Shown here: piece after piece, positions 12,846 through 51,900 of the stretch
Position numbering within the stretch: position 1 is the first letter of the stretch
Layout: each line of letters begins with the position of its first letter
NCBI GenBank assembly: GCA_964398775.1
Contig: CAYNND010000005.1
Coordinates: 5,266 to 69,265 of the forward strand
DNA: 64,000 nt
DNA from: an uncultured Candidatus Saccharibacteria bacterium
GTDB taxonomy: Bacteria; Patescibacteriota; Minisyncoccia; Phycocordibacterales; UBA2100
Direction: 5' to 3'
Made by a program: the position numbers and the translations under genes
Notes under the pieces: generated by a model
The model's database searches: none
Told to the model about the DNA's origin: nothing
What the model saw: only the letters and a program-made list of their open reading frames with translations

Positions 12846-13448
12846 ATGAACATACAAGCAAAACATATAGCCGAAGCATTCGGCACATTTATTCTTGCAG
12901 TGAGTGTTGCATTATCAGCTCATGCAGGCAACGGTCTGCCTCTGAACACTGCGGTGCTCGCAGCACTCATCGTGGGTCTATTTGTATTTACTATTGGTTC
13001 ACTATCGGGTACACATTTAAATCCTGCAGTAACACTTGCGCAACTCGCTCAAAAGAGAATATCTCAGGCAGACGCGATGCATTACATTGCAGCGCAGATG
13101 ATTGGCGGTATCGTTGCAGGCTATATTGTACTTGGTACGGGCATGTTTCGTTTTTCACACATACTTTCGTTTGAGCCTACAGTATTTATAGCAGAAATAT
13201 TTGGCGCGATGATACTTATGTTTGGTATTGCATCTGTTGTACTTAATCGCGTTCAGGCATCAGGTGCACCTTTTGTTATCGGTGGTTCACTTCTTGCGGG
13301 TGTTATGCTTGCGCTGCTTATGGGTGGCATTGGCATCATTAACCCAGCAGTTGCAATTGCACTTGGTGAGCTCACACTTGCGACACTCTTTGGTCCAGTC
13401 ATTGGTGCTACGATCGGGATGTACTTCTACCCCCTACTGGTTGAATAG
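12846..13448 (+). CDS. MIP-family channel (aquaporin/glycerol facilitator-like), compact 200 aa
   Basis: Two NPA boxes (HLNPAVT and IINPAVA), six hydrophobic segments. Confidence 0.85.
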   Translation: MNIQAKHIAEAFGTFILAVSVALSAHAGNGLPLNTAVLAALIVGLFVFTIGSLSGTHLNPAVTLAQLAQKRISQADAMHYIAAQMIGGIVAGYIVLGTGMFRFSHILSFEPTVFIAEIFGAMILMFGIASVVLNRVQASGAPFVIGGSLLAGVMLALLMGGIGIINPAVAIALGELTLATLFGPVIGATIGMYFYPLLVE

Positions 13449-18535: not shown

Positions 18536-19549
18536 CTAGTATATCTTAAAACCGAATGCTTCACGAACTTCGGAAAGTGATTGCGCGGCAAGCGTCCGTG
18601 CTCGCTCAGTGCCTTCCCGTAAGATGCGCTTCACCTCACCTGGATTTGATTCATAGTACCTCCGCCTTTCTCTGATTGGTTCCAGGAACTGATTCATTAC
18701 AGCAACAAGATATCGCTTCACTTCCATATCACCAACACGCCCTTCTCGGTATCGCACTTTAAAATCGGCAATTGCTTCTGTGTGCTCTGCAGAACCGAAT
18801 GTATCTAAGTACATAAAAACGGGGTTACCCTCAACTGTTCCCGGGTCTGTCGCGCGGATGCGCTTTGGATCCGTGTACATACCCATTACTTTTCGCTCAA
18901 CTTCCTCTGCTGCTTCGCCAAGGAAAATTGTATTGCCGATACTCTTACTCATCTTTGGGCTTCCATCAGTTCCTACAAGTTTGCCAACACGGCCTACAAG
19001 TCCTTCCGGCTCTGGAAAGATAGTTCTTCCAGCATGTGTATTCATATCACGAGCAATTTCCCGCGACTGTTCAAGGTGTGCAAGCTGGTCTACACCAACT
19101 GGCACAAGGTCGCCTTTTACGCACAAAATGTCTGCTGCTTGATAGATTGGATAATTTACAAATCCAAGCGAATATATGTCGCCCAAACCCTTAATTTTTA
19201 TCTCATCTTTAATTGTTGGATTTCTAAGTGCTGTGGCGTGTGTCACATACATACTGAAGAATGCAGCAAGTTCATATATCTCTGGAACACCAGATTCAGC
19301 AAAGAAAGTTACTTTCTCAGGATCAAGTCCCACTGCAAGGTTATCAGTGGTAGTTTCAAGGAGATACTCACCGACTTTCTGAGGTTCTTTGTGTAGTGTT
19401 GTGAGCGCGTGCAGGTCAGCCTCAATTATAAAAGTTTCGTAGTCATGCTGCAGTTTTACTCTGTTCTCAAGTGTTCCCACATAATGCCCAATGTGAAGCT
19501 TCCCTGTCGGTGTATCCCCAGTAAGTATACGCTTTTTTCTTTCAGTCAT
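18536..19549 (-). CDS. trpS: Tryptophanyl-tRNA synthetase
   Basis: TGDTPTGKLHIGHYVG (HIGH) and KMSKS present; 337 aa. Confidence 0.9.
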   Translation of the reverse strand: MTERKKRILTGDTPTGKLHIGHYVGTLENRVKLQHDYETFIIEADLHALTTLHKEPQKVGEYLLETTTDNLAVGLDPEKVTFFAESGVPEIYELAAFFSMYVTHATALRNPTIKDEIKIKGLGDIYSLGFVNYPIYQAADILCVKGDLVPVGVDQLAHLEQSREIARDMNTHAGRTIFPEPEGLVGRVGKLVGTDGSPKMSKSIGNTIFLGEAAEEVERKVMGMYTDPKRIRATDPGTVEGNPVFMYLDTFGSAEHTEAIADFKVRYREGRVGDMEVKRYLVAVMNQFLEPIRERRRYYESNPGEVKRILREGTERARTLAAQSLSEVREAFGFKIY

Positions 19550-19580
19550 CTGTAGATGGTATCAAAAAAATACAAAATGG

Positions 19581-19790
19581 CTACCGCAGCGGTTTTTCAA
19601 AAAGTGATGCTACATGTGCTGCAAAATGCTCCCCTGCTGTGCGGAGCTTGTCAGGCGTTTTCTTCATTTTATCTATTTCATCTGCCCAAATGATAATATA
19701 CGGCACCCCGGATTCTTGAAGTATAGCGAGCTGTTCTTGCAGCACATCGCTCGGCGGATATTTTTTTGATCTATTTGTGAAAACTATCAT
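19581..19790 (-). CDS. Small hypothetical protein (69 aa) translationally coupled (ATGA) to the patatin-like gene
   Basis: ORF start overlaps the upstream stop by 4 nt. No recognisable motif; it could be a frameshifted C-terminus of the patatin gene. Confidence 0.35.
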   Translation of the reverse strand: MIVFTNRSKKYPPSDVLQEQLAILQESGVPYIIIWADEIDKMKKTPDKLRTAGEHFAAHVASLFEKPLR

Positions 19791-20476
19791 CGAAGTGGGA
19801 CGAGCAATTTTTGAGAAGTCTTGATATGGGAATGGGTTCGTATCACCAGCGTCTTCGTACTGCCCCCGTCGATTAGCACTGGTACATAGTTTGTCATAAT
19901 GGGAAATGACATAGATGCTTCAAGTGTTTGCATAAGTTCAGTTTCTGTCTGCGGCCTCCGCAGTTCAGATTCCCCAGTCTTTGAGTTCTTCACTTGAAAA
20001 TATGTTTCAATTTCAGAGTTTATAACTCGTGATGCGTTGAGTTTTTTATGCTCTGAGCCTTGAAGCTTTCCAGCAAAGACTGTGTGCACAAGCCAGTGCA
20101 CGTCCATGATTGGCTTCCCTTCTTTTCTTCGCTTGAGGTCGAAGAACTGCGCGCGTGTGCACTCATCAGGATATATTGTGCAGCCTATGCCTGCCTTCTC
20201 TGCGGCACCATATGCCGCAGCAGCAGCCCCGGTCGATGAGCCAAGTATTGCATGAAAGCCTTGAGTGAGCCGCATGTGCTCTAATTTTGCCATGCCATAC
20301 CCACCACTGACGCCATCAAGTCCACCAGGCAATATTGCAATGCAAGGTCGCGCAGTCGGCTTCTCGCCACGTGCACGTTCTTGCGCAGAGCGAACAAGCT
20401 CATAGATCACCCGTTCAGCCTCAAACGCCTCATGATGAGTGAAATCACGTATATCACGTTGTGTGTCTAAACTCAT
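19787..20476 (-). CDS. Patatin-like phospholipase (compact, 229 aa)
   Basis: Oxyanion Gly-rich loop GGLDGVSGGYG, nucleophile elbow GSSTG (GxSxG), catalytic Asp in the DGG motif (VLIDGGS). Confidence 0.7.
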   Translation of the reverse strand: MSLDTQRDIRDFTHHEAFEAERVIYELVRSAQERARGEKPTARPCIAILPGGLDGVSGGYGMAKLEHMRLTQGFHAILGSSTGAAAAAYGAAEKAGIGCTIYPDECTRAQFFDLKRRKEGKPIMDVHWLVHTVFAGKLQGSEHKKLNASRVINSEIETYFQVKNSKTGESELRRPQTETELMQTLEASMSFPIMTNYVPVLIDGGSTKTLVIRTHSHIKTSQKLLVPLR

Positions 20477-20489
20477 ACAGGAATAAAAC

Positions 20490-22103
20490 TTACGCTATTG
20501 GAAGTTCTGCAATAAATGTCGAACCTTTTCCTTCGCCAGCTGATTCTGCCCATACTTTTCCTTTATGGGCTTCTATCATTTGTTTTGCTACATACAAACC
20601 AAGCCCAGTTCCAGACACGTTAACTCCAGATGCACCCCGAGCACGCACGAATTTGTCGAAAAGCTTCGGGAGCTCATCCGCTGGTATGCCCACACCACTA
20701 TCAGATATCGACACTCGAACATAGCCGCCAACAACTTCTGCAGAGATGCGAACCCACCCTTCTCGAGTGTACTTTATTGAGTTATCAATCAAATTACTGA
20801 CGACATGCTTTAGTTTTCCATAATCTGCATGGACAAGAAAATCAGTGTCAGGTACTTCATACTTAAGTATGAGCCCTTTCCGTTCTGCGCCAGCTTTTAA
20901 TTCGTCAAAGACCTCCTTTGTCAGTTTCTGAATCGGAAAATCAGTCATATCATAAACCATTCTTCCTTGATCAATGCGTGATACGCTCAAAAAGTCTTCA
21001 ATAGTGCCATTCATCAGCATTCCAGATTGGAGCACTTTTCCAAGAACTTCTTTTATTTTATCTGAAATTTCGCCAAATGAACCACCAAGAACTAGGGATG
21101 TATACCCAGTCATTGCGCCAAGCGGTGTACGAAGCTGGTGTGTTGCAATTGAAAGAAATTCCGACTTTTGCCTACTCAGTTCTTCAAGTTTGCTGTTTGT
21201 TGCTTCTAGTTCAATCTTCTGCCGCTCAAGTATTTCTTTTGACTCAATTTCTTTACCAATACTTTTAGAGAGAATATACCCGAGAATACCACTGGTGAGG
21301 AGTGTGAATGTGTTCAGTACAAGATCAGTAGTTCCTTGCGAGGTTATAAGTCGCAGGAGTAGCGTTGTGCAAAGTAAAAAGATAAACAATTGAGCGAAAA
21401 TCAGCTTAAAATTGAATATTTTATACTTGAATATGGCTATTGCTGTTACGAGCACAAAGCTTATGCTAAATATAGGACCGTAGGAATGCATTGAAATGAC
21501 GTGGAAGTATGGAAGTATTAGATTAAACAGCAATGCCATGATTGTTGATGGAAATGTTCCAACTGCAATTATTTTCAACTGTCTTCGCAATGAGTAGTCG
21601 TTACTCATGCGTATCACTTGTATGATTCGGTAAAATACCAAAATCATGTTGAGTATAAGCACACTAAGGTAGAATAAGTAGATTGGTCCTAGATAGTATG
21701 TATGCATGCGAGTCTCACTTGCAACCACATACATGAAATCATCTGAAAATGTAATGATAGCGGCGAAGCTGTTTAGTGCTGTGTATACGACAAACCACCA
21801 ATTCGATTTGAGGCTTTTACCGTCTGTAAACTCAATGACAAACAAATAGTAGAAGTATGTAAGGAGTGCCCCACACATAAAGGTCATTTTTGCGGTGAGT
21901 TCGACGAGCCAGGGCTCTGTTTGAAGATTAAAGACAAGGATACACAGCACCCACAATAGTAAGAAAAAGACCGAAGCTGCAAAAAAACGAGAATGGTTTC
22001 CTCTACGTATGGTTAGAAGTAGCAAGATAAGGAGTAGTGTGTAGACAAAACCCGCAACAACAAGTAAATAGTTTTCAAGCAGTTGTGTTTTCCACTCAAA
22101 CAT
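20490..22103 (-). CDS. Sensor histidine kinase with N-terminal polytopic (about 7TM) sensor domain; orphan (no adjacent response regulator)
   Basis: HisKA H-box SIATHQLRTPL; HATPase_c G-boxes (DSGVGIP, GTGLGLYVAK). Confidence 0.85.
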   Translation of the reverse strand: MFEWKTQLLENYLLVVAGFVYTLLLILLLLTIRRGNHSRFFAASVFFLLLWVLCILVFNLQTEPWLVELTAKMTFMCGALLTYFYYLFVIEFTDGKSLKSNWWFVVYTALNSFAAIITFSDDFMYVVASETRMHTYYLGPIYLFYLSVLILNMILVFYRIIQVIRMSNDYSLRRQLKIIAVGTFPSTIMALLFNLILPYFHVISMHSYGPIFSISFVLVTAIAIFKYKIFNFKLIFAQLFIFLLCTTLLLRLITSQGTTDLVLNTFTLLTSGILGYILSKSIGKEIESKEILERQKIELEATNSKLEELSRQKSEFLSIATHQLRTPLGAMTGYTSLVLGGSFGEISDKIKEVLGKVLQSGMLMNGTIEDFLSVSRIDQGRMVYDMTDFPIQKLTKEVFDELKAGAERKGLILKYEVPDTDFLVHADYGKLKHVVSNLIDNSIKYTREGWVRISAEVVGGYVRVSISDSGVGIPADELPKLFDKFVRARGASGVNVSGTGLGLYVAKQMIEAHKGKVWAESAGEGKGSTFIAELPIA

Positions 22104-22122
22104 AGATCAGTATAAGTATATA

Positions 22123-23286
22123 CTATCTTTTGAAGAAGAAGTCAGTGTGTTCATAGAATATTGTGTGTTCCATTTCGTGAGTCTCTTTTTGTACGAGTGT
22201 CAGGGTATTACTGATATCGTGCGTAAAGCTCGATGAAATATAGTAATTGTAATATGAGATTTTCTTTGTAAAATCACTAAGAAATGGAATAATTTTTCCT
22301 AAGAAAAGCAATAAATTAATGTATGTTTTTGCAGCCCATTCAGGTGCTGGAATTGCCAAAAATGAAATACGTGCGCCAGCTGATGTGTGCAGCAATATTT
22401 GACTAAACGGAACTGGAGTAGGGTTTGAGAGTTGAAATGTTGAAATAGTGTTACTACTCCCTTCTGTAATAAGTTTTTTGTATGTAATCGAAACTATAGC
22501 AGCAGATACCCATTCTGTTGAAACCAAATCCATCGCACATGTCCGTGAATAAACAAAGGGAATATGTGTTGTCAGGACGCCTTCAGCACTGAGGCGCATG
22601 CCAAATACAGTGGCAAGCAGCGGGTGTGCATGCACAAAGACGGCTAAGTGTTTTCTGAGACGAATCAGTGATTTTGCAAGTACAAAAAAACCAAAATTGT
22701 ACAAATGGGATTTTTCACTCGATATAAGTATGCCAGGCCTGAATATTACTACTGAGTGTGATTTTGAAAATGCATTTTGTATGTAGTGCTCCGAAAGAAA
22801 TTTTGATTCCTCGTAATAGTTATTGAAACTACTCGGTTGAATCAACTCATCTTCCTTCAAGATGCCTGTCCTATTCCCGTGCACAAATGCTGTGCTTACA
22901 AAACCAAATGGCACCCCCAATTCTTTACACACATCATATATTTGTGATGTTGCAGTGTAGTTGTCATTCATTACCTGTTCTTTATCGCGGCTTTTGAATG
23001 AAAGATTTGCAGCAGAGTGTAGAAAACAGAGTGGTTGTAGAAGTTCGAGGTGGTGCTTCAACGCACGCGTATCAACATTTGAAAGTGAAAACTCATAGTA
23101 TTTGCAACCATGCAAAAGCTCCTCATATTCACTACCAAGGTGATGTTTTATGCGTAATTCAAGGCTTTCATGCTCTGAACTTCTTCCGAGAAAAATGATT
23201 TTGTAACCGTCACTTAGAAATTGTCTCGCGACATGCTTTGCAAGAATGCCAGTTGCTCCAGTTAGCGCGATGTATTTAACATTCAT
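22123..23286 (-). CDS. NAD(P)-binding thioester-reductase / fatty-acyl reductase-like protein (extended SDR, NAD_binding_4-like)
   Basis: IALTGATGILAKH Rossmann motif, YEESK (YxxxK) catalytic motif. About 390-aa length is typical of terminal reductase domains. The gene is distinctly AT-rich. Confidence 0.55.
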   Translation of the reverse strand: MNVKYIALTGATGILAKHVARQFLSDGYKIIFLGRSSEHESLELRIKHHLGSEYEELLHGCKYYEFSLSNVDTRALKHHLELLQPLCFLHSAANLSFKSRDKEQVMNDNYTATSQIYDVCKELGVPFGFVSTAFVHGNRTGILKEDELIQPSSFNNYYEESKFLSEHYIQNAFSKSHSVVIFRPGILISSEKSHLYNFGFFVLAKSLIRLRKHLAVFVHAHPLLATVFGMRLSAEGVLTTHIPFVYSRTCAMDLVSTEWVSAAIVSITYKKLITEGSSNTISTFQLSNPTPVPFSQILLHTSAGARISFLAIPAPEWAAKTYINLLLFLGKIIPFLSDFTKKISYYNYYISSSFTHDISNTLTLVQKETHEMEHTIFYEHTDFFFKR

Positions 23287-23313
23287 TGAGCAATAATACC
23301 ACGTGTAGTAGTT

Positions 23314-23979
23314 CTAACCGAGAATATCACGAGAGATAGATCGGTAATGCTCTGCATCGTTCTCTTGTGTCATGTTTGTTTTTGGTTCGTATTCTTTCAG
23401 TTTTCGGCAAGTAACGCTATATGCTCCATTGTGTCTTACAATATTGATTGGTGCGATTACACATGGAGTTGTCATTGCTATGTAACCTGCCCCCCCGTGC
23501 ATTTTACCACTCGTAATACCACCTTCAGGAAAGATTGCGACTATTCGCTTCTCAGCAAGTAATGTGAGGTGATTGCTGAGTGAGATGGAGTAATCATGAC
23601 GTCCTCTCTGGATTCTCCATGCACCTATTGAGTTCATGACAAAGTCACTTGACATAAAGTATCTCAGAAAACCAAATGAAGTCGACTTAAAGTGCTCTGC
23701 GGTATTTGTAACAAAGAAGATTGGTGAAAAGGCGTACTTTGTGTGAACGAGTGCACATTGGATGTATGCAAAGTCGAGCATGCTTACATGATTTGCCGCA
23801 ATAAGGATTCCACATCCTTTTGCGTGAGCCGAATCTAGTGCTTCTTGCAGATTGTCGGCATTGTGAATTCTCATGCCCGTTGTCAGGTACAGAATAGGGT
23901 ACACGCACAACCTGAATATGTTTTGCGTTACTACTGTTACGTAAATAAAGATACGAGATACGCTAATGCTTTTCGTCAT
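23314..23979 (-). CDS. PlsC/LPLAT-family acyltransferase (1-acyl-glycerol-3-phosphate acyltransferase-like)
   Basis: HxxxxD motif (ANHVSMLD) and FPEGG motif. The ORF is open to 24069; the likely start is MTKS. Confidence 0.75.
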   Translation of the reverse strand: MTKSISVSRIFIYVTVVTQNIFRLCVYPILYLTTGMRIHNADNLQEALDSAHAKGCGILIAANHVSMLDFAYIQCALVHTKYAFSPIFFVTNTAEHFKSTSFGFLRYFMSSDFVMNSIGAWRIQRGRHDYSISLSNHLTLLAEKRIVAIFPEGGITSGKMHGGAGYIAMTTPCVIAPINIVRHNGAYSVTCRKLKEYEPKTNMTQENDAEHYRSISRDILG

Positions 23980-24463
23980 GGAAAATTGTGTTCGCTCTGT
24001 CTTCTGGATGTAGCAAATCTCTGTGCTCCTCATCGAGGTGCCACACAGAAGAATCGATAGCTGCATCATCGTACGAGCATTTTTTATCGTGATTGAAAGG
24101 ACACCACCAATTTTCTACAATTTTAACCAAATAGAGCAAGTATGATATGAGAGCAATCGTCAGTGGGCAGTACATTTTACAGTTAAACACCCAGTACCAT
24201 CTGAAGTTACTTATCACATACCCTTTGTAAACAATTTGATTGTCGAGTGTGTATCGGTGGGATGCCCATTTTGGTGCAAAATCCTTCCAATACGATTTGA
24301 GGTCATGTGCCCCAATGAATTTGAGGTGTGTGCGAACAAGGAGCACGCCAAGTATCATAAAAGGTACTGACGTCAGTATTGGAAGATAGATGAGAGGTAT
24401 TGCAATAAATTTTTTCCAGAAGGGCTGCTTAGCAAAGCCAGATGCAATATGTACTCGTTTCAT
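23963..24463 (-). CDS. Hypothetical membrane protein
   Basis: Two to three hydrophobic segments; Trp/Cys-rich C-terminal region; no recognised family. Confidence 0.4.
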   Translation of the reverse strand: MKRVHIASGFAKQPFWKKFIAIPLIYLPILTSVPFMILGVLLVRTHLKFIGAHDLKSYWKDFAPKWASHRYTLDNQIVYKGYVISNFRWYWVFNCKMYCPLTIALISYLLYLVKIVENWWCPFNHDKKCSYDDAAIDSSVWHLDEEHRDLLHPEDRANTIFHDEKH

Positions 24464-24480
24464 GGATGCCAGATAGAATA

Positions 24481-24966
24481 CTACACCTTACGTGAGAATG
24501 CTATCGCTGTGATGCCCGCAAGTAATACAAATAAAAGTGATGACTCACCTGTTACGAATTGACCAAGGAACGGGCCAAAGGTGAAAATTGAACTCATAGG
24601 TACTACTCGAGTTACCACAAAAGCTGACAATAGAGCCACTCCAGCAGCAGCCATGGCTACTTTTGGAAATCGCTTTGTATCATCTATGCCTGATGTTGAG
24701 TGACGTACTGCCCAGAATGAAAACGCAAGCATAAGCAGGAAAAAAGTAGCCTCTATAGGTACAGGCAATATGCCAAGCAGTGCTTGTATAAAGTTTGGCA
24801 CCAATAGCTTCCCTGCTGATAGTGTTGAGAGAAAAGATGCAACGACAAGCGCAATTCCAATTTCTGATACAATCTGAACTCCTCTTACAAGTCCAGCTGC
24901 AAGTGCGCTTGCAAATACTATCGTTAGAAACAATATGTCTGACGATATGCCAAAAATAAAATCCAT
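24481..24966 (-). CDS. Small 4-TM membrane protein (CvpA-like?)
   Basis: 161 aa with four hydrophobic helices. The family assignment is a guess. Confidence 0.4.
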   Translation of the reverse strand: MDFIFGISSDILFLTIVFASALAAGLVRGVQIVSEIGIALVVASFLSTLSAGKLLVPNFIQALLGILPVPIEATFFLLMLAFSFWAVRHSTSGIDDTKRFPKVAMAAAGVALLSAFVVTRVVPMSSIFTFGPFLGQFVTGESSLLFVLLAGITAIAFSRKV

Positions 24967-25007: not shown

Positions 25008-26111
25008 CTACAGCCCTTCTTTTTGAAGTTCAGTGATAAGCTCCTTAGCATGCTTAGAAAGTTTCTTTGGAATCTCAACGGATATCACAGCAATAAGGTC
25101 ACCACGGCCGCCTCGTGTCGGGAATCCTTTTCCTTTCAGTCTCACCAGATCGCCATGTGAAGCACCTGCTGGTACTGTGATGGTCACATCTCCATCTGGT
25201 GAATGTATTGTGTAATCATGCCCAAGTAGTGCATCAGTAAGCTTGACCGAAAGATGGTGCAGTATGTCATTCCCTGCTCGCTCAAAACGAGCGTCTGATT
25301 TTACGTGAATTCGTGTATACAAGTCACCATTTACTCCACCTGAAGCTGCCTCACCTTTGCCGGTAAGGCGTATAACCTCCCCATCATTAATCCCTCCGGG
25401 AATTGCAATGCGAATCTCCTCCTCTTGCTTATAGACTTTCTGACCTTTGCAGGTACTGCAGGTATCTTTTGGTGTTGTGCCGAGTCCATCGCATGTGTCA
25501 CATGTCTTCATTTGCGTGAATACACCGAGCAGAGAGCGCTTGGTTTCCTTAATTTGTCCGTTGCCGTTGCAGGTAGTGCACGTTACTGTTGCTGTCCCTT
25601 TCCCTCCACTGCCTTTACATTCTGTACATTGTGCAACTTTATTGAGTAGTACTGTGCGTTCAGCTCCAAATATTGAGTCTTTGAATGAAATTTCAATGTC
25701 TATTGATATGTCTCGCCCGCGCTTCTGAGACCTTCTTCCTTGGTTTCTTGAGCCGGCACCGAAAAATTCTCCAAAGATATCACCTAAGTCGAATTCAACT
25801 CCATTTGCTGAAAATGAACCATTGAAGCCTTGCCCTCCAAATTGACTAAAATCAAAGCCTTCGAAGCCACTAAATCCACCACCTTGTGGACCTGCCCCAT
25901 TAAAAGTTTGTCCATAGGTATCATATTCAGCGCGGCGTTTTTTATCAGAGAGTATTGAGTATGCCTCACTCACTTCTTTAAACTTCTTCTCGTCACCACC
26001 TGCCTTATCAGGATGATACTGTTGTGCGAGCTTTCTAAAAGCTTTCTTTATATCCTCTTCGGAAGCGTTCTTTTTTACACCTAAAATATCGTAGTAATTC
26101 TTTGAATTCAT
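25008..26111 (-). CDS. dnaJ: Chaperone DnaJ (Hsp40)
   Basis: J-domain YYDILGV…HPDK, G/F-rich region, four CxxCxGxG zinc-finger repeats. Confidence 0.95.
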
Positions 26112-27437: not shown

Positions 27438-27725
27438 TTAGTGTAACGACTGCCAACTTCCACCGTTAATAGCTACTACTCCATGCGCTGCAAGCATTCG
27501 GACAGCCTGAGCGCTTCTTCCACCTGAAAAACATACTATGACAATTGGTTTTGCACTAGCTGTAAGTACTTCAATCTGAGATTGCAGTGCATTGAGTGGT
27601 ATGTTCACCGAACCTACGTAATGTCCTGCTGCAAACTCATCGGTACTTCGAACATCAACCACAAGAGCTCCTTTTAAAAGGAGCTCTTGTAGAGAAAATG
27701 TTGGTTCAGCATTTGTACCAAGCAT
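27438..27725 (-). CDS. Single-domain rhodanese-like sulfurtransferase
   Basis: Active-site loop CFSGGRS with catalytic Cys; 95 aa. Confidence 0.75.
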   Translation of the reverse strand: MLGTNAEPTFSLQELLLKGALVVDVRSTDEFAAGHYVGSVNIPLNALQSQIEVLTASAKPIVIVCFSGGRSAQAVRMLAAHGVVAINGGSWQSLH

Positions 27726-30535: not shown

Positions 30536-31126
30536 CTATTCTAGCTCAAATAGTGCAATGTACTGTTCAACGTTGTCGATATCTATAGCTACAAGATACC
30601 GTACATACTCCGAAGCATTAAAGAAATCACAAATTGATTTCACCTCTTCTGTGCATTCAAAAGGGTAAATATACACTGAGCGCTGATACACTTTAAAGCC
30701 TATATCTTCGAGTTTCTGACGGAATGAATTACGAGTCGTAGTCATTTCCTTCGGGAAGTCAAACATCACTACTCTCCATTTTTTATCCCACCTCTTCGGG
30801 GTTGCGACTGAAAGATCCCATATAGCCACTTCTGCCAGCTTCACTTTCCCTTCTTGAGTCAGCAAAATATAATACTCGTCGCCGCGCTCCTTTATTGCGA
30901 TGCGGTTTTGCTCTTCAAGATACTTAATAGCTTTCCATATTCGATTACGCTCGAATCTATCTTGAGGTTTAAAATGGCTTATAACCTGCAATGCGTTAGC
31001 CTCAGCATGCGCAGAATCAAACTCAGCCTCAACGAGGCGAAGTATTGACTGAGCGAGCGATCCGCGCCCTGGTGTCCCAATGTGTCCAGTTACTGGACTC
31101 TGAGGGAGTACCTTTCTTTTCTTCAT
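30536..31126 (-). CDS. Putative transcriptional regulator: N-terminal winged helix plus C-terminal Cas2/PaaX-like (VapD-fold) domain
   Basis: C-terminal block RVVMFDFPKE…RNSFRQKLEDIGFKVYQRSVYIYPF resembles the Cas2 / PaaX middle-domain fold pattern. The N-terminal region is wHTH-like. Confidence 0.45.
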   Translation of the reverse strand: MKKRKVLPQSPVTGHIGTPGRGSLAQSILRLVEAEFDSAHAEANALQVISHFKPQDRFERNRIWKAIKYLEEQNRIAIKERGDEYYILLTQEGKVKLAEVAIWDLSVATPKRWDKKWRVVMFDFPKEMTTTRNSFRQKLEDIGFKVYQRSVYIYPFECTEEVKSICDFFNASEYVRYLVAIDIDNVEQYIALFELE

Positions 31127-31231: not shown

Positions 31232-31702
31232 ATGAGTAAAAAACTCAGTGGGTTCACACTTATCGAGCTCCTTGTTGTTATAGCAATCATTGGTGTACTT
31301 TCTGCCGTAGTGCTTGCGTCTATGAATGCTTCGCGCGGCAAGGCGCGGTACACGCGCATCCTCGAAGATTTTCGCTCGATCGAGACTGCTGTTCGTCTTG
31401 CGTATGATGCAAATAAAGCTTACCCTACTGATGTTCTTTGGGGGGTCTTTCCTCCCGAGCTGACACAGTATTTGAGTCGATGGCCAAAACCGCCTTGTAG
31501 TGGCTGGACATATGATTATGAAAATTGGTCAGATGGACGCATCTATGTGACTGCACGAAATGCATCAAATGATGATGTGGTGTATTACTGTATTGAAGAT
31601 GAAAGCGAAAATTGTCCAAATACAGCATCGGCACCAAGTTCGGGCTCGATAAATATAGTTACCGATTGGCCTGCAAAGGCAATTCAGTGTACAGAATTAT
31701 AG
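31232..31702 (+). CDS. Type IV pilin / pseudopilin paralog with prepilin N-terminal motif
   Basis: MSKKLSGFTLIELLVVIAIIGVLSAVVLAS. The N-terminus is about 80% identical to the pilin at 469..966, with C-terminal Cys residues. Confidence 0.85.
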   Translation: MSKKLSGFTLIELLVVIAIIGVLSAVVLASMNASRGKARYTRILEDFRSIETAVRLAYDANKAYPTDVLWGVFPPELTQYLSRWPKPPCSGWTYDYENWSDGRIYVTARNASNDDVVYYCIEDESENCPNTASAPSSGSINIVTDWPAKAIQCTEL

Positions 31703-43296: not shown

Positions 43297-44340
43297 TTAT
43301 GTTTTTTTTGAGTAGTGTGTCCACTGGACGAGGTTCCAGAGTATGCGCATACCAACGTTTGCATTCCATTCAGAATCATTTGCTTGTGGCGAAACTTCAT
43401 TAACATCAAAACCAATTATCTTTTTACCTGATTTCGCGACTGCTCGAATGAGAAATACCGCTTGGTCGAATGAAAGGCCTCCAGGGACTGGTGTACCTGT
43501 GCCTGGGCACAGTGATGCCTCAAGTCCATCAATGTCAAAACTTATATATACTTTTTCTGGAAGTTGTTGAACTATTTTGGCAACTGACATCTCCCATGTA
43601 GAACCGCAAAATGACTCAGCTTTCAAATCAGTATCAAAAAAAGTACTAATACGGTTACTGTTCTGTACGATATATTCTCGCTCTCCTGGTGAGTAATCAC
43701 GAATACCGACCTGAACTAATTTCTTAACAGAAGATACATGTGCAAGAACGTTCCACATTATTGATGCATGTGAGTACGTAAAACCCTCATATGCTTCTCG
43801 TAAGTCGCAGTGTGCGTCAATTTGCAAAATGCCAAATTCAGAGTGCACATCGCCGAGTGCTCGGATAAGCCCATATGGAGTACTGTGGTCGCCACCTATC
43901 AACCCTACTAATTTGCCTTGTGCAATGTGATATGCGGACTCTTCATGAATTTCATCATGGAATACTTCACACGCTATATTGATTTCGGCCAGAGCTTTTG
44001 CGTTCCCTTTTCTGCCAGATGATATGTCCTGTATATATCGCTCTGCCTTAGATCTTAATTGCTGACCACGCTTCAAGACATTGTGTTTTTCTTGCAGCGG
44101 AGTCATGTATACACCTACTTTCCAAGAATCACCACCATGCGCCTCATGATAATAGTCAATTTGGGGTGATGCAGCGTAAATCGCCTCAGGTCCTTTTTGT
44201 GTGCCACCACCATAAGAAACAGTAACACCCCACGGAGCAGGTATAAGTACTATGCTTGCATCAGATTCTGCGGTTGAAAGACCGAAAATACCAGAGTTTG
44301 TTTGCGCGACGGCGTTTGGGTCAAATGGTTTTGAGTTCAT
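43297..44340 (-). CDS. speB: Ureohydrolase of the arginase/agmatinase family (probable agmatinase)
   Basis: GGDHS, DAHCD and SFDIDGLE…PGTGTP metal-binding motifs. The context includes arginine decarboxylase and carboxyspermidine genes. Confidence 0.75.
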   Translation of the reverse strand: MNSKPFDPNAVAQTNSGIFGLSTAESDASIVLIPAPWGVTVSYGGGTQKGPEAIYAASPQIDYYHEAHGGDSWKVGVYMTPLQEKHNVLKRGQQLRSKAERYIQDISSGRKGNAKALAEINIACEVFHDEIHEESAYHIAQGKLVGLIGGDHSTPYGLIRALGDVHSEFGILQIDAHCDLREAYEGFTYSHASIMWNVLAHVSSVKKLVQVGIRDYSPGEREYIVQNSNRISTFFDTDLKAESFCGSTWEMSVAKIVQQLPEKVYISFDIDGLEASLCPGTGTPVPGGLSFDQAVFLIRAVAKSGKKIIGFDVNEVSPQANDSEWNANVGMRILWNLVQWTHYSKKT

Positions 44341-44349
44341 GTGTATATC

Positions 44350-45576
44350 TTACCCCATTCGTGACTTAAAATCTTCATATGTAAACTCTCTGAGTGTTTC
44401 AAGTTCTCCATTTTCATGAAGAAATACAATTGATGGATGTTTAACGCCATTAAACATAGTAATCTTTATGAGTGTGTATTGAATTGCGTGCTCAAATACA
44501 ACTGCATCACCTACTTTTAGTGGTTTATCAAATGAATAGAGTGCATGCGTCATATCACCTGCAATGCAGGTGCTACCACCAAATCTATATACATGCTGCT
44601 GCGTAGCGTTATTGTCGTCAGTATCAATTCGCTTTGCATTTCGCACCTCTAGCTGAAGATCTTTACTTACAAAAAAGTCTGTAAGATGATTTTCAAATGA
44701 CATATTTAGAATCGGTATTTTATATGGGACATCATCTCGCTCAACAATATCCAAAACGCGAGCGACAAGTGTACCGACATGCCATGCTATTGCTGCGCCT
44801 GGCTCAAGATGAATCTCTACATTATATTTTGCAGCAAATGTGTTGAGTATGTGTATGAGTTTTTTCCTATCGTATGAATCATCAGTTATTTTTTGTCCAC
44901 CGCCAAAATTAACCCACTCCATGGCGCTACAATACTCACCAAAGTTCGATTCAATTTTACTAAGTGCTTGCTCAAGGTCTTGCGCATCCTTTTCAAAGAA
45001 GAGATGGAAATGTAGACCGCTTATACCCTCGAGTGCCTTTGCATCTTCAGTCAACGCTCGCTTAAATTCAGAAATGCGGATCCCAAGTCGTGAGCCCGGC
45101 GCGCAGGGATTCCAAAGCTCGCCGTGACCATCTGCGTCAAGAATTTCCGGGTTAATTCTCAAACCAAAACTTCTTAATTTACCGGTTGTTCGTGCGTAAG
45201 TAAGAGCTTGGTCTTTAAACTGTTTCCATTGAGAGAATGAGTTGAAGATGATAGTACTGCAGTAATTTAAAATTTCTGAAAATTCCTGTGTGTTATATGC
45301 GGGCGCAAACATATGAACGTTCTCGCCAAAATGCTCGTAGGCAAGTCGCGCTTCGTGCAGTGAACTTACCTCTGCGCCTTGAAGATACTCTCGTTCAATC
45401 GGGAAAAGCTGCCAGGGACTCCATGCCTTCAAGGCGTGCAGTATGGTTGCTCCGGTAGCATCATGAATTTCTTTCAATACTGAAAGATTATGACGGAGAA
45501 TATGTTCTTCTATTACAAAGGCAGGTGTATCTACTTGTGATGCGATGAGTCGTGATGGTGGTCTTCGTAGTTCCAT
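44350..45576 (-). CDS. nspC: Carboxynorspermidine/carboxyspermidine decarboxylase
   Basis: About 400 aa. The C-terminal block …ITMFNGVKHPSIVFLHENGELETLREFTYEDF is characteristic of CANSDC. Alanine-racemase-fold N-domain. Confidence 0.75.
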   Translation of the reverse strand: MELRRPPSRLIASQVDTPAFVIEEHILRHNLSVLKEIHDATGATILHALKAWSPWQLFPIEREYLQGAEVSSLHEARLAYEHFGENVHMFAPAYNTQEFSEILNYCSTIIFNSFSQWKQFKDQALTYARTTGKLRSFGLRINPEILDADGHGELWNPCAPGSRLGIRISEFKRALTEDAKALEGISGLHFHLFFEKDAQDLEQALSKIESNFGEYCSAMEWVNFGGGQKITDDSYDRKKLIHILNTFAAKYNVEIHLEPGAAIAWHVGTLVARVLDIVERDDVPYKIPILNMSFENHLTDFFVSKDLQLEVRNAKRIDTDDNNATQQHVYRFGGSTCIAGDMTHALYSFDKPLKVGDAVVFEHAIQYTLIKITMFNGVKHPSIVFLHENGELETLREFTYEDFKSRMG

Positions 45577-45578
45577 GG

Positions 45579-46829
45579 CTATATTTTCTCGGGCAATGGT
45601 TTAAAATCAACAACTTCAAATGGCAAACCATTCTTCGATACAATTTCAAGAAAAGGCTCTGGATCAAGCTGCTCCATGTTATATACTCCAGCGCCACTCC
45701 ATACCCCTGTCATGAGCATGTATGCCGCAGACATTGCGGGGACACCCGTTGTATACGAAATTGCTTGTGAGCCAACTTCCTTAAAGCATGCTGCATGGTC
45801 GCAGACATTGTATATGTACTTTGTCGCTACTGTGCCGTCCTTTTCACCAGTAATAATGCATCCAATATTTGTCTTCCCGCTGTAGTTCGTTGCGAGTGAC
45901 GCTGGGTCAGGGAGCAGTGCTTTCAAAAATTCCATTGGAACAATCTTAACAATCTTCCCATTGAGTTTGAATGGTATCGGCTTAATACCTGAAATGCCAA
46001 TACTCTCCATTACCCTGAGATGGTTGAGATAATTTTCCCCAAAAGTCATCCAGAAACGCATGCGTTTCAGGCCAGGCAAGTTTTTTGCAAGCGACTCCAT
46101 TTCTTCATGGAAGAGCAGATAGCTTTCTTTGGGTCCGATTTGTGGATAGTTAAAAGCAAAATGAATGCTGCCAGTGTTCATGACTGGAGGTGTATACACC
46201 CAAGTCCCATCCCTGAAATGCTTCACTTCCTGTGTGACCTCACGAATATTAATTTCTGGATTGAAATTTGTAGCAAATGATTTGTCATGACTTCCAGCGT
46301 TTGCATCAAGAATGTCTACGGACTCAATTGTTGTGAAATACTTCTTGAGTGCGTACGCGCAATACATATTTGTAACTCCTGGATCGAAACCTGCGCCCAA
46401 AACAGCCATAAGACCAGCTTTTTTAAACTGAGTATGTTTTGCCCACTGGAGTTTGTACTCAAATTTTGCCTCGTCTTTCGGCTCATAGTTTGCTGTGTCA
46501 ATGTAATGGACTTTTGTTTTCAGGCATGCATCCATTATGGTCAGGTCTTGATATGGAAGTGCCAAGTTCAACACAAGGTACGGCTTTACTTTTTTTATGA
46601 GCGCGACCAGTTGCGGCACCTTGTCAGCATCAACTTGGTGTGTAGTTATTGCAACATCCCATCGTTTTTTAACATCTTTTTTTATTGCATCAGCCTTTGC
46701 TTTTGTTCGCGTTGCAACATGAATTTTTGTAAAAACTTTAGAATTCATTGCGCATTTGTGAATCGCAACTGATGCAACACCTCCTGCGCCAATTATAAGA
46801 ATTGTCCCATTATTTTTCTGAGTTTTCAT
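45579..46829 (-). CDS. Carboxynorspermidine/carboxyspermidine dehydrogenase (saccharopine dehydrogenase-like)
   Basis: N-terminal ILIIGAGGVASVAIHK Rossmann motif. 416-aa length and saccharopine-DH-like C-domain. Adjacent to the CANSDC gene. Confidence 0.7.
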   Translation of the reverse strand: MKTQKNNGTILIIGAGGVASVAIHKCAMNSKVFTKIHVATRTKAKADAIKKDVKKRWDVAITTHQVDADKVPQLVALIKKVKPYLVLNLALPYQDLTIMDACLKTKVHYIDTANYEPKDEAKFEYKLQWAKHTQFKKAGLMAVLGAGFDPGVTNMYCAYALKKYFTTIESVDILDANAGSHDKSFATNFNPEINIREVTQEVKHFRDGTWVYTPPVMNTGSIHFAFNYPQIGPKESYLLFHEEMESLAKNLPGLKRMRFWMTFGENYLNHLRVMESIGISGIKPIPFKLNGKIVKIVPMEFLKALLPDPASLATNYSGKTNIGCIITGEKDGTVATKYIYNVCDHAACFKEVGSQAISYTTGVPAMSAAYMLMTGVWSGAGVYNMEQLDPEPFLEIVSKNGLPFEVVDFKPLPEKI

Positions 46830-49413: not shown

Positions 49414-50436
49414 ATGAAGACAGCACGTATCGCGATTATTGGAAAAGGAAACATAGGAAATACTCTTGCAGAGCGTGCACAAGCACTGGGGCATCAGATT
49501 TCAGCGCATATAAGTCGCTCAGAATTTAAAAATCATCGCGGAGATACTGTCGCACACACTTTCGATAATTTCGCAACGTTTATAGAGCACTACCCTGAAG
49601 AGCGTCCTGAGATTGTTTGTTTGGCTATACCAACTCTGGATACTGGTGAGATTGCTGCTCAGCTAATCACAGATGCTCTATCACTTGGAATCCATGTTGT
49701 TACGTGCGAAAAAGGCTCACTTTCATATCATGCAGATGAGCTTTTAACTGCAGCATCACCTGCACAACTTCGTTATTCAGCATCAGTAGGAGGAGGTACG
49801 ATGATGCTTCCGTATATGTATATGAGAAATATGCAGGAGCGGGTTATTCAAATGGATGCAGTAATAAACGGAACATGCAATTTTATTTTCCATCAAACTG
49901 CACAAAGTGGACGCACTCTAGGAGAAGCATGTGATGAAGCTGCTCGGCTTGGATATGCAGAACCTGGGAGCAAAGAACCTTTAAGTCTTATAAATGGAGA
50001 ATTGAAAGATGTTCGCATGAAGACATGCGTACTCTTTAATACGGTATTGGCTCAGAAATTGCGCATTACGCCGCGCGACCTCGGTTCTCTATCCCTCAAC
50101 GAAGCAACACTAGATGAACTCAGTAGGTATTCGGGTAGTGTGCGGCTTGTTGTGCAATTTACAAACACAGAAAACGCCAAAATAGCTGAGTATAGTGGTT
50201 GCCAGTTTGTCACTTCAGTTGACGGATGGACAATCCAAGGAGGGTTTCGTAACCTTCAAAAGGAGCCTGAGCTGCTCCAGTGGCTTCCAGGAGGTGTCGG
50301 AAACGCAATCCACATCACAGAGGGTAAGCTAGGAAGTGGCGGAAGGTACACACTGACAGGACCGGGTGCAGGGGCTGAGGCGACTACATCAGCTATGCTC
50401 AACGACATTCATGAAATACTAACAACTCGATACTAA
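49414..50436 (+). CDS. hom: Homoserine dehydrogenase-like oxidoreductase
   Basis: N-terminal IAIIGKGNIGNTL NAD-binding motif; central …VINGTCNFIF…LGYAEPGSKEP… block resembling the homoserine DH catalytic domain. Confidence 0.6.
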   Translation: MKTARIAIIGKGNIGNTLAERAQALGHQISAHISRSEFKNHRGDTVAHTFDNFATFIEHYPEERPEIVCLAIPTLDTGEIAAQLITDALSLGIHVVTCEKGSLSYHADELLTAASPAQLRYSASVGGGTMMLPYMYMRNMQERVIQMDAVINGTCNFIFHQTAQSGRTLGEACDEAARLGYAEPGSKEPLSLINGELKDVRMKTCVLFNTVLAQKLRITPRDLGSLSLNEATLDELSRYSGSVRLVVQFTNTENAKIAEYSGCQFVTSVDGWTIQGGFRNLQKEPELLQWLPGGVGNAIHITEGKLGSGGRYTLTGPGAGAEATTSAMLNDIHEILTTRY

Positions 50437-50502: not shown

Positions 50503-51900
50503 ATGAAACGCGCACGTGCATCAGCACACAAACATGCGAAGAATGGTTTCAGAAAGATGTGGAAACTCGGCATAGAAGAGGTTAACACAGGGATGTTTGA
50601 TATAAGTGATGATGGTTCACTTGTTGTTCGAGAGGGAAACTTCCAATACAACATCCATGACATAGTAAAGAAGTACGGCACTTCAACCGAAATCCTCTTC
50701 CCTACGATCATTGAAAATCGAGTTCGAGACATGATTGAGACATTCAATGCCTACATTAAAGTGCTCGGATACAAAGGCAAATACCACTATCATTACCCAA
50801 TGAAGGTGAATCAGAACAAGGAATTCGTTCTTCCTGCAGTTGCTGAAGGCGCAAACCTTGAAGTTGCCTCTGCAAACGAATTATTTTTAGTGAAGCGAAT
50901 GATTGAACAGAACAAATTTACGAACAGTATTCGTGTGCTCTGCAATGGACCGAAAACAGAACGTTATATTGAACTTATCGAAGAGTTGAAATCTAAAGGA
51001 CTTGTTGTTATACCTATTATCGAAGACCATAGTGAGCTTGAGCGAATGAGGCGTTTCAAAGGTGAGGTTGGCATACGTGTTGACTTAAACATTAAAGTCG
51101 ACAGTCATTGGGATAAACGATTTAACCGATTTGGCTTTACTGAAGAAGAGCTTGTTTCTCTAGGTACAATACGAAACCTCTCAATACTTCACTACCATAT
51201 TTCAAGCCAGATTGAGCATATAGATGGCCTTATACGTCCGATGCAGCGAGCAATTGAACTGTACGCAAAGATGCGCCTAAAAAACCCTGGTCTCGACTCA
51301 CTTGATATTGGCGGTGGTGCTGGTATTCCATACAATAAGAACAAGCAACTCTATAACACCAAAAATCTAATACAACGAATTGTTAAGACGGCAAAGGCTA
51401 CTTGCGATAAATTGAATGTAAAACATCCGACACTCATCTCAGAATGGGGACGATATGCTGTTGCACCTGCACAAATAACTATATACAAAGTTATCGCTGA
51501 GAAAGAGATTGCACAGAAGGATAAGCATAAATGGTATGTGGTTGATGGGAGTTTTATGAATGATCTTACAGACACATGGGCATTGCACCAAAAGTGGCAT
51601 GTTGTACCAGTAAACAGTATGAAACACCACAAACTCCAGCATACATGGCTTGCTGGGAGCTCGTGTGACAGTGATGATAAATACACTGCGGGCGGCACAT
51701 CTATACCACTACCTAAAATAAGCGATACTGATAATGGACTCTATATAGCCATCCTCGACACAGGTGCGTATCAAGACTCGCTTGCGTCACATCACTGCAT
51801 GCTCTCGTCACCTCTTAAGCTTCTTGCAAGTAATGGTGAAATTAAGGTTATACGCAAACGCGAAGCTCCTGAAGATGTGGGGAGACAATTTGGATGGTAG
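50503..51900 (+). CDS. speA: Fold-III PLP-dependent decarboxylase, probable biosynthetic arginine decarboxylase (compact SpeA-like)
   Basis: PLP-lysine block YPMKVNQNKEFV; HYHISSQI matches the SpeA HFHLGSQ motif; DIGGGAGIPY glycine-rich loop. Confidence 0.65.
   Translation: MKRARASAHKHAKNGFRKMWKLGIEEVNTGMFDISDDGSLVVREGNFQYNIHDIVKKYGTSTEILFPTIIENRVRDMIETFNAYIKVLGYKGKYHYHYPMKVNQNKEFVLPAVAEGANLEVASANELFLVKRMIEQNKFTNSIRVLCNGPKTERYIELIEELKSKGLVVIPIIEDHSELERMRRFKGEVGIRVDLNIKVDSHWDKRFNRFGFTEEELVSLGTIRNLSILHYHISSQIEHIDGLIRPMQRAIELYAKMRLKNPGLDSLDIGGGAGIPYNKNKQLYNTKNLIQRIVKTAKATCDKLNVKHPTLISEWGRYAVAPAQITIYKVIAEKEIAQKDKHKWYVVDGSFMNDLTDTWALHQKWHVVPVNSMKHHKLQHTWLAGSSCDSDDKYTAGGTSIPLPKISDTDNGLYIAILDTGAYQDSLASHHCMLSSPLKLLASNGEIKVIRKREAPEDVGRQFGW

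Follow-up and report, generated by a model that had tools for sequence, protein, structure and literature searches.

In the agr system of staphylococci, the variable block consists of biosynthetic genes together with the N-terminal polytopic sensor of AgrC, and the kinase domain is conserved (PMC10482373). In comQXP of Bacillus subtilis, the N-terminal multi-helix domain of ComP is highly variable and its cytoplasmic domain conserved, the variability extending in step to the upstream genes for the modifying enzyme and the signal (PMC4008528). Here we analyze a locus that shares this layout with agr, its own junction lying at the linker before the H-box. It is located in a 64-kb stretch of DNA (hereafter, the window, numbered from its first letter) from an uncultured Candidatus Saccharibacteria bacterium, where the region 20490-24966 and its immediate surroundings, between dnaJ and trpS, encode a histidine kinase with a seven-transmembrane (7TM) sensor, a reductase, an acyltransferase, a patatin-like hydrolase and two membrane proteins. 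The region is probably this genome's filling of a variable slot present throughout Saccharibacteria, in which a sensor and enzymes, for which we infer an acyl chemistry, are exchanged together. The evolutionary anatomy of the slot, as reconstructed from sequence comparisons, can be proposed with high confidence; the acyl-chain biochemistry of the cassette (lipase, acyltransferase and reductase steps) is put forward tentatively, from family and motif assignments. The genes and segments concerned are listed below; L002, L003, L166 and similar labels denote comparison loci.

25008..26111, minus strand: dnaJ, with DnaJ domains; conserved flank, 5' of the slot as transcribed
24481..24966, minus strand: memB, 161-aa polytopic membrane protein; part of the backbone, outside the cassette
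23963..24463, minus strand: memA, 166 aa, two transmembrane (TM) helices; uncharacterised conserved family; cassette-specific
23314..23979, minus strand: PlsC/AGPAT-family acyltransferase, 221 aa, PF01553; the longest open reading frame (ORF) reaches 24069
22123..23286, minus strand: reductase of the extended short-chain dehydrogenase/reductase (SDR) type, 387 aa, NAD_binding_4; resembles thioester-reductase/fatty-acyl-reductase domains
20490..22103, minus strand: 7TM histidine kinase, full gene; HisKA_7TM, HisKA and HATPase_c
21171..22103, minus strand: 7TM sensor module of the kinase, residues 1 to ~311; variable, part of the cassette
20490..21170, minus strand: kinase core, comprising the linker end and the dimerization/phospho-acceptor (DHp) and catalytic domains; conserved backbone
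21171-24482, minus strand: variable slot (cassette), with memA, the PlsC-type acyltransferase, the SDR and the 7TM sensor half
19787..20476, minus strand: patatin-like serine hydrolase, 229 aa; in a separate second insertion between kinase and trpS
19581..19790, minus strand: 69-aa ORF within the patatin-gene insertion; 4-nt overlap with the stop codon of the patatin-like gene
19554-20498, minus strand: second insertion, with the patatin-like gene and the 69-aa ORF
18536..19549, minus strand: trpS; conserved flank, on the 3' side of the slot

Three genomes were close enough for comparison at the nucleotide level, and metagenome loci were placed in Saccharibacteria by synteny. The window TrpS has matches in the uncultured Saccharibacteria genomes L002 (91%), L003 (68%) and L004 (67%). 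Flanking proteins of L002 are highly similar to those of the window (amino acid identities: DnaK 90%, TyrS 79%, DnaJ 84%, memB 81%, TrpS 91%, AsnS 91%, PepM29 89%, ScpA 76%). At the nucleotide level, homology to L002 extends over 27401-24483, breaks off, reappears over 21170-20499, breaks off again and resumes at 19553; the two breaks thus define two variable segments, 21171-24482 and 19554-20498. The kinase-side junction falls within the kinase gene itself, in the linker that joins the last TM helix to the phospho-accepting His, and therefore the 7TM sensor module belongs to the cassette. Along the protein, identity between the two kinases is ~20% before residue 309 and ~80% after it (change-point 309), the cores being 72% identical in nucleotides and ~80% in amino acids. 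Between memB and trpS, L002 encodes a 227-aa acyltransferase, a 248-aa FeeM/autoinducer-synthase-like N-acyl synthase (its FeeM, E = 1e-5, and TIGR03694 matches fall under the cut-offs) and a kinase whose 7TM module is unrelated to that of the window; the reductase, memA and the patatin-like gene are missing. memA is also absent from L003, where an unrelated alpha/beta hydrolase occupies the position of the patatin-like gene. The acyltransferases of the window and L002 are found in the same position and yet are only 31% identical despite the 84% identity of DnaJ, a distance typical of lineages with DnaJ only ~50% identical.

The cassette is variably present among close relatives, being found in L166 and not in L002. 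The gene order in L166 is dnaJ-memB-memA-acyltransferase (221 aa)-reductase-kinase, with amino acid identities to the window of 81-98% (DnaJ 97%, memB 97%, memA 97.6%) and proportions of synonymous differences (pS) of 0.54-0.76, that is, with synonymous sites saturated. The first 111 residues of the kinase are 96% identical. Ratios of nonsynonymous to synonymous substitution rates (dN/dS) between the two loci are 0.008 for dnaJ, 0.010 for memA, 0.031 for the kinase N-terminus and 0.085 for the acyltransferase. Hence the cassette genes, the sensor included, are under strong purifying selection, and the low value for the first 111 residues of the kinase rules out that the sensor is variable merely because of relaxed constraint. 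Strong conservation within a type, taken together with 31% acyltransferase identity at 84% DnaJ identity, argues for replacement and not for drift. The cassette is also old, because the same one is found in L166 despite saturated synonymous divergence.

To see how widespread this arrangement is, we scanned metagenomes with the kinase core, which yielded 80 loci; with the genome loci this makes 83 comparison loci (84 with the window). Their comparison reveals a conserved backbone, dnaK-dnaJ-(small membrane protein)-[slot]-histidine kinase-trpS-asnS. trpS is downstream of the kinase in 44 of the 83 loci, immediately adjacent in 25, and dnaJ is upstream in 26; where both flanks are present (21 loci), the gap between dnaJ and the kinase varies from 7 bp to 6.8 kb and accommodates 0-9 genes. 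The small membrane protein is exemplified by a ~161-aa family (c6) that follows dnaJ in 19 loci; memB, which has no Pfam match, is weakly matched by the hidden Markov model (HMM) of c6 (E = 0.004), and the memB counterpart of L003 scores 1.6e-10. In L003, L082, L084, L125, L146 and L161 the slot is filled by a PlsC-type acyltransferase and a reductase resembling acyl-ACP (acyl carrier protein) reductase (AAR) and PigE (PDB 4ppm, E = 9e-19; 6jzq, E = 2e-8; TIGR04058, E = 5e-16). The AAR-like proteins are encoded between acyltransferase and kinase, where the window has its SDR, and BLAST clustering leaves them unlinked to the window SDR (PF07993). Other slot contents include S-adenosylmethionine (SAM or AdoMet) methyltransferases, AdoMet decarboxylase, saccharopine-dehydrogenase-like, EamA and SET proteins, and small Cys-rich proteins. 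We found no published description of such a slot in the literature on Saccharibacteria kinases, variable regions, acyltransferases and HisKA_7TM, our coverage of which was incomplete.

Among 69 full-length kinases, cores that are 90-95% identical are often paired with sensors that are only 15-35% identical, and at equal core divergence the sensor identity is bimodal, either >=75% or <=45%. In 10 of 11 kinase pairs, the identity change-point falls at window residues 277-309, i.e. in the linker from the last TM helix to His322, where nucleotide homology of the pairs resumes as well; the eleventh pair shares a single sensor type. Clustered by sensor, the 69 kinases give 43 types, and clustered by core, 39 groups; five sensor types are seen within one core group, and the same sensor type can recur in as many as six core groups. 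Sensor types found across core groups keep their upstream gene family: type 0 goes with c25 (c12 usually next), type 1 with c11, type 2 with c53 and type 4 with c46. Among pairs with cores >=75% identical, sensors were >=50% identical in 8 of the 16 pairs sharing the upstream family and in 0 of the 34 pairs not sharing it (Fisher's exact test, 2.4e-5, the pairs being non-independent). Flanks of swapped pairs are 75-90% identical in nucleotides, corresponding to different species, and the sample holds no genomes of the same species.

Several further kinds of genes are found upstream of the kinase. Loci L083, L090, L099, L121, L155 and L157 have a trio of ThiF-family, nitroreductase-like and PaaK/F390-synthetase-like ligase genes, which by family assignment resembles a small-molecule or peptide-modification cassette. 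An alpha-oxoamine synthase of the BioF/KBL/serine palmitoyltransferase (SPT) family is encoded in L094, L095 and L101 (TIGR00858, 438 bits, above cut-off), accompanied in L094 and L095 by an amidohydrolase. CqsA was considered as its identity and rejected, the protein being closer to BioF, KBL and SPT, so that only an analogy at the family level is kept. Members of cluster c11 are Cys-rich, 118-170 aa long and hydrophobic in an N-terminal segment, and match no Pfam family; they are encoded directly upstream of the 7TM kinase in L102, L127, L128, L140, L144, L145, L150, L158 and L159 and accompany sensor types 1 and 5. Judging from these features, the c11 protein is possibly a secreted ligand or partner of the sensor.

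The window kinase itself matches HisKA_7TM over residues 14-232 (30.3 bits; cut-off 28.6), HisKA over residues 312-380 (43.6 bits, E = 3e-11) and HATPase_c over residues 427-536 (98.6 bits, E = 4e-28), and its H (H322QLRTP), N (NLIDN), G1 (DSGVG) and G2 (GTGLG) boxes are intact. As the original prediction had it, there is no response regulator nearby: phmmer searches with CheY, PhoB and NarL detected no receiver domain in any ORF of the 64-kb window. The same search over 905 ORFs of the 84 loci returned a single match, in L143, beside a second kinase, so that the kinase is without an adjacent regulator in 83 of 84 loci. This is the state of the whole lineage and not the result of an insertion; together with the conserved core and the conserved position next to trpS, it contradicts the view of the kinase as an acquired orphan. 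Some loci encode two kinases: in L154, L158 and L159 a second, shorter histidine kinase (404 aa) lies between the 7TM kinase and trpS, and two kinases are likewise present in L098, L120, L133 and L143.

The region had initially attracted attention by its base composition, and the drop is real: GC content is 40.2% for 20490-24966, whereas the remainder of the window has 44.4%. Within the cassette (21171-24482, 3.3 kb) it is 39.4%, the sixth lowest value among 1214 windows of equal length. Consecutive 1-kb values across 21-25 kb are 0.387, 0.375, 0.414 and 0.411, compared with mostly 0.42-0.48 elsewhere, and a finer profile bottoms at 0.327. The very low GC predicted for the reductase gene was also found, GC falling locally to 18% over 60 nt and to 21% over 100 nt near 22230. 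The reductase gene as a whole (0.384) is the lowest of 60 ORFs (mean 0.447, sd 0.022), the kinase gene (0.401) is likewise among the lowest, and the patatin-like gene has 0.486. Reading this dip as a foreign signature, however, does not survive inspection of codon positions. GC content at third positions (GC3) is 0.34-0.44 for the genes of the region (window mean 0.383, sd 0.035), with the reductase (0.343) and the kinase (0.374) both near the mean, and codon-usage distances of the kinase, reductase and acyltransferase genes are ordinary (0.22-0.43; mean 0.32, sd 0.09). Composition is non-uniform, but GC3 and codon usage are native, and the deficit resides in first and second positions (GC1 and GC2): the 7TM part of the kinase has GC 0.382, GC3 0.412, GC1 0.42 and GC2 0.31, compared with GC1 0.58 and GC2 0.38 in the core. 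Cassette proteins are high in F, L, S, I and Y and low in A, G, D, E, R and P, and the L166 version of the cassette shows an equal dip with normal GC3. Since the deficit is confined to GC1 and GC2 and recurs in L166 at saturated divergence, the dip is a property of the proteins and not of recent foreign DNA; the low GC of the cassette comes from its amino acid composition. The methodological lesson is that a GC dip of this origin is not to be taken as recent foreign DNA. GC skew of the plus strand is positive (+0.05 to +0.27) across 21000-24600, which fits Phe/Leu/Ser-rich cassette proteins; nearly all other minus-strand coding sequence in the window has negative skew.

Domain assignments proposed originally for the kinase, the SDR, the acyltransferase and the two membrane proteins hold, whereas the patatin-like protein stays below the Pfam cut-off with its motifs intact. 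The acyltransferase matches PF01553 (52.9 bits, cut-off 23, E = 4e-14) and has both H64VSMLD (HxxxxD) and F150PEGG in its 221 residues. Its match to TIGR00530 (1-acyl-glycerol-3-phosphate acyltransferase; 25 bits) is under the cut-off of 103 and a sequence search of PDB gave no significant match, so that acceptor specificity is not fixed by sequence. In 5.8 billion proteins its single close relative, besides an identical sequence, is the L166 copy (81%). The start of the gene is ambiguous. The longest ORF has 251 aa (23314-24069) and overlaps memA by 107 nt, and public gene calls give 196 aa in one case and 221 aa in another; alignment of homologs favours 221 aa, with the start at 23979 and a 17-nt overlap with memA, which is also the length called in L166.

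For the reductase, the best Pfam match is NAD_binding_4 (PF07993; 76.1 bits, cut-off 20.1, E = 3e-21), followed by Epimerase (55.4 bits); RmlD_sub_bind and GDP_Man_Dehyd match as well. It scores 53.1 bits with the thioester-reductase model TIGR01746, far under the cut-off of 213. The motifs are T9GATGILA, S131/T132 and Y158EESK162, and T9GxxG13, S131, Y158 and K162 are invariant in 10 homologs; this Rossmann and Ser/Thr-Tyr-Lys set is common to sugar epimerases and non-discriminating. In a Foldseek search with an AlphaFold2 (AF2) model (pLDDT, the predicted local distance difference test score, 74), the best E-value was that of 4u7w, a thioester-reductase R domain, with epimerase E-values close to those of R domains. 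The highest query TM-scores belong to terminal thioester-reductase R domains (6vtj, 0.68; 4u7w, 0.66), compared with 0.50-0.59 for sugar epimerases. Nine homologs were found in the 5.8 billion proteins, at 98%, 87% and then at <=30% identity (one short segment excepted). Of the distant ones, P0003 adjoins a GT4 glycosyltransferase and a carbamoyltransferase, and P0005 adjoins rpoB; this context was considered as a guide to function and dismissed as uninformative.

The patatin-like protein scores 23.9 bits (E = 5e-5) with PF01734, under the gathering cut-off of 27.7, and has the GxSxG nucleophile motif (G79SSTG), D203GG and a Gly-rich oxyanion motif (G51GLDG); searches of NCBIfam, PDB sequences and PADLOC gave no match for it. 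An anti-phage reading (a patatin effector of the CBASS type) was rejected, as PADLOC returned only a generic ATPase match for the kinase. Sequence comparison presents the individual enzymes as apparently new, very divergent members of known families. memA belongs to a family of ~170 aa (homologs P0085-P0204, some members being tandem duplications) with >200 full-length homologs at 50-61% identity in Gammaproteobacteria, Geobacteraceae and Chlorobiales, that is, outside the Candidate Phyla Radiation (CPR), which suggests a foreign source for the gene. Its motifs NCK.YCP, ENWWCPF.H and D.S.WH are invariant. The AF2 model is confident (pLDDT 85); a fold search of PDB gave no match, and there is no Pfam family. 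Genomic context offered no function either, as no neighbouring gene is common to the three loci inspected, in a gammaproteobacterial metagenome-assembled genome (MAG), a Geobacteraceae MAG and an unlabelled metagenome contig.

All genes of the region are on the minus strand, with spacing from a 17-nt overlap to a 41-nt gap, a tight packing compatible with co-transcription alongside dnaJ and trpS. Relative to trpS the region is upstream as transcribed, not downstream as first described. The interval 20490-24966 takes in two backbone parts, the kinase core and memB (the latter originally counted as a member of the island), and does not include the patatin-like gene, which had nevertheless figured in the reasoning. 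The 69-aa ORF was gene-called in L001, has no Pfam match and falls within the stretch without L002 homology. A public sequencing run contains a 15.9-kb contig identical to part of the window.

A plausible mechanism, then, is that the cassette would be swapped by recombination through the conserved flanks, not inserted with a mobile element. A mobile-element origin was rejected: there are no tRNA genes in the window and only short chance repeats flanking the cassette, and ORFs of the region contain no integrase or transposase domains. A promoter/terminator scan of the region was no richer than that of shuffled sequence. In the proposed pathway, the patatin-like enzyme might act on scavenged lipid to set free fatty acids or lysolipids, the acyltransferase might re-esterify an acceptor hydroxyl and the reductase might turn an activated acyl group into an aldehyde or alcohol. 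What the matched 7TM module detects would be a membrane-borne or hydrophobic substrate or product of these enzymes, and the conserved kinase core would relay the signal to a regulator encoded elsewhere. We infer the acyl role from the NAD_binding_4 best match and R-domain Foldseek scores of the reductase, from the AAR/PigE-like reductase or N-acyl synthase (L002) in the same slot position of relatives, and from the replacement of the patatin-like gene by an alpha/beta hydrolase in L003. The original description of the gene set as coherent around acyl chains agrees with what the genes encode, namely a PlsC-type acyltransferase and a patatin-like hydrolase alongside a thioester-reductase-like SDR; the Lands cycle and ether or wax lipids, also suggested originally, would be candidate pathways.

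Functional matching is the simplest explanation for a sensor travelling with its cassette. Several observations weigh against the proposed model as a whole, beginning with the fact that physical linkage alone could give the same co-variation of sensor and cassette. The JGI name of the reductase is nucleoside-diphosphate-sugar epimerase, its PDB sequence matches are heptose epimerase and RmlD (E ~ 1e-5), and its distant homologs adjoin glycosyltransferase or rpoB genes. The patatin assignment is under the Pfam threshold, and memA, whose homologs are unlinked to lipid genes, gives no functional clue. Moreover, the compared pairs are different species (flanks 75-90% identical in nucleotides); only three genomes are near enough for nucleotide comparison, and the taxonomy of metagenome loci is inferred from synteny.

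Two alternatives concern the history of the region. The original prediction amounted to a recently acquired, AT-rich, horizontally transferred island with an orphan kinase and a lipid module. The cassette is indeed among the lowest-GC stretches of the window, and its reductase and acyltransferase have almost no relatives. What stands of the acquisition is that the reductase, memA, the patatin-like gene and this particular acyltransferase are missing from the closest species, L002, and that memA, 50-61% identical to proteins of Proteobacteria and Chlorobiales, may be foreign. A recent event is very unlikely, however: GC3 and codon usage are native with the dip in GC1 and GC2; L166 shares both cassette and dip at saturated synonymous divergence; tRNA, repeats and integrase were not found; the kinase core and memB are ancestral, as is the adjacency of kinase and trpS; and the lack of an adjacent regulator in 83 of 84 loci means that the orphan state did not result from an insertion. 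Synteny across the lineage has two sides, slot content differing between species and flanks, kinase core and memB being conserved. The opposite view, in which nothing was replaced and very rapid divergence of orthologs in situ accounts for both the acyltransferase and the 7TM module, could draw on the order acyltransferase-X-7TM kinase common to the window, L002, L003, L082, L084, L125 and L146, and on every sensor module matching one Pfam family. We regard it as highly improbable, as selection within types is strongly purifying (dN/dS 0.03-0.09), sensor identity splits into >=75% or <=45% at equal core divergence, one sensor type is found in several kinase-core groups, and the reductase, FeeM-like and AAR-like proteins are different protein families.

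Other alternatives concern function. By analogy with agr and comQXP, where biosynthetic genes and the N-terminal membrane sensor likewise form the variable block next to a conserved kinase domain, the locus might be a signal/receptor locus of the pherotype kind, the cassette making a strain- or species-specific hydrophobic signal for which the 7TM module is the receptor. We consider this rather unlikely. Sensor types do reassort among cores and track the upstream gene family, a small Cys-rich, possibly secreted protein is encoded directly upstream of the kinase in 11 loci, and cassettes of relatives hold a LuxI/FeeM-like synthase, SAM methyltransferases and a BioF/KBL-family alpha-oxoamine synthase, classes that elsewhere serve as autoinducer synthases. 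On the other hand, no regulator is adjacent; the differences seen are between species; the alpha-oxoamine synthase is nearer to BioF, KBL and SPT than to CqsA; polyamine enzymes, the EamA transporter and the SET domain are unlike signal synthases; and the PlsC-type enzyme and N-acyl synthase of L002 equally suit membrane aminolipid synthesis. For the window, the candidate signal is an aldehyde, alcohol or ester derived from a fatty-acyl group and produced by the acyltransferase and reductase pair, a proposal that is similarly doubtful, as is the broader analogy, in which the kinase would be a receptor for a ligand made or processed by the cassette and the slot a lineage-wide, discrete-type recognition system (for self, kin or host) built from unrelated small-molecule and lipid enzymes. 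It is still less likely that the region is an envelope-glycan or sugar-nucleotide module, with the SDR as an NDP-sugar (nucleoside-diphosphate-sugar) epimerase/reductase and the acyltransferase O-acylating a sugar or cell-wall polymer. The JGI name, the Epimerase, RmlD_sub_bind and GDP_Man_Dehyd matches, the top PDB sequence matches (heptose epimerase and RmlD), the epimerase Foldseek E-values near those of R domains and the GT4 glycosyltransferase and carbamoyltransferase beside P0003 all point that way. NAD_binding_4, however, is ahead of the other Pfam families by ~20 bits, the top query TM-scores in the Foldseek list go to thioester-reductase R domains, relatives pair the same kind of acyltransferase with an acyl-ACP-reductase-like thioester reductase or an N-acyl synthase, and PF01553 enzymes usually use lipid acceptors.

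Saccharibacteria are ultrasmall epibionts with reduced genomes and are thought to depend on their hosts for lipids and most building blocks. Their host sensing and membrane adaptation are poorly understood, and an exchangeable slot with its own sensor offers a concrete handle: one conserved kinase at a fixed genomic address, with a sensor changing in step with accessory enzymes, all of which are predicted to handle acyl groups in the window and its nearest relatives. If the coupling is functional, the cassette type could mark host range or lipid environment, and the pairs of sensor and cassette would make up a naturally occurring collection of matched modules, of the ligand-receptor or the enzyme-sensor kind. 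The evolutionary pattern alone documents domain-level exchange at a fixed kinase junction, in a phylum where two-component signalling is nearly unstudied.

Elsewhere in the window there is a polyamine-type block (43297-46829, minus strand; 49414-50436, plus strand; 50503-51900, plus strand) with Arginase-family (agmatinase-like), Orn/DAP/Arg decarboxylase-like and saccharopine-dehydrogenase-like (probably carboxynorspermidine dehydrogenase) genes, and further with a second pyridoxal phosphate (PLP) decarboxylase and a homoserine-dehydrogenase-like gene. Polyamine-type genes (AdoMet decarboxylase, saccharopine-dehydrogenase-like) occupy the dnaJ-kinase slot in other Saccharibacteria-like loci. 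The window also encodes a regulator with a PaaX_M/Cas2-like domain (30536-31126, minus strand), a pilin-like protein with an N-terminal methylation motif (31232-31702, plus strand), a rhodanese between tyrS and dnaK (27438-27725, minus strand) and, among the few plus-strand genes, a MIP-family channel (12846-13448, plus strand).

Returning to the described systems, the window differs from agr in having neither a peptide precursor gene nor an adjacent response regulator. Furthermore, the variation here involves different enzyme families rather than alleles of one gene, and the differences are between species. The kinases are of different types as well, AgrC being of the HPK10 type and the window kinase of the HisKA type with a HisKA_7TM sensor. 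In comQXP, ComA is encoded adjacent, whereas no regulator adjoins the window kinase; and different pherotypes still have homologous ComQ and ComX, a constancy not seen in the slot, where one gene family gives way to another.

Lipid pathways provide partial parallels for slot contents. The OlsB/OlsA (or GlsB/GlsA) aminolipid pathway consists of an N-acyl synthase and a PlsC-family O-acyltransferase, and the L002 slot similarly pairs a PlsC-family acyltransferase with a FeeM/autoinducer-synthase/GNAT-like N-acyl synthase; this analogy suggests that the slot acyltransferase may act on a lyso-type lipid made by the neighbouring enzyme. In the window, a reductase is present instead of the N-acyl synthase. 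An NAD_binding_4-type acyl reductase is also paired with a PlsC-family acyltransferase in the synthesis of ether lipids, by myxobacterial ElbD and by eukaryotic FAR1 with GNPAT. Unlike there, the window proteins are separate, small and <30% identical to characterised members, and there is no alkyl-dihydroxyacetone phosphate (DHAP) synthase and no adenylation or carrier domain. As for cyanobacterial AAR and the N-terminal thioester reductase of PigE, the AAR/PigE-like protein of relatives sits where the SDR sits in the window, and the window protein is an extended SDR (PF07993) of a different family. One slot position thus appears to be held by two non-orthologous kinds of predicted acyl/thioester reductase.

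Finally, in its conserved flanks, variable content and absence of mobility genes the locus resembles recombination hotspots and flexible genomic islands. It differs from them in that one slot boundary lies within a gene, at a domain junction of the kinase, so that one domain of the protein moves along with the genes beside it. A slot with a domain-level boundary in a kinase gene is a new form of a polymorphic locus already known in kind.

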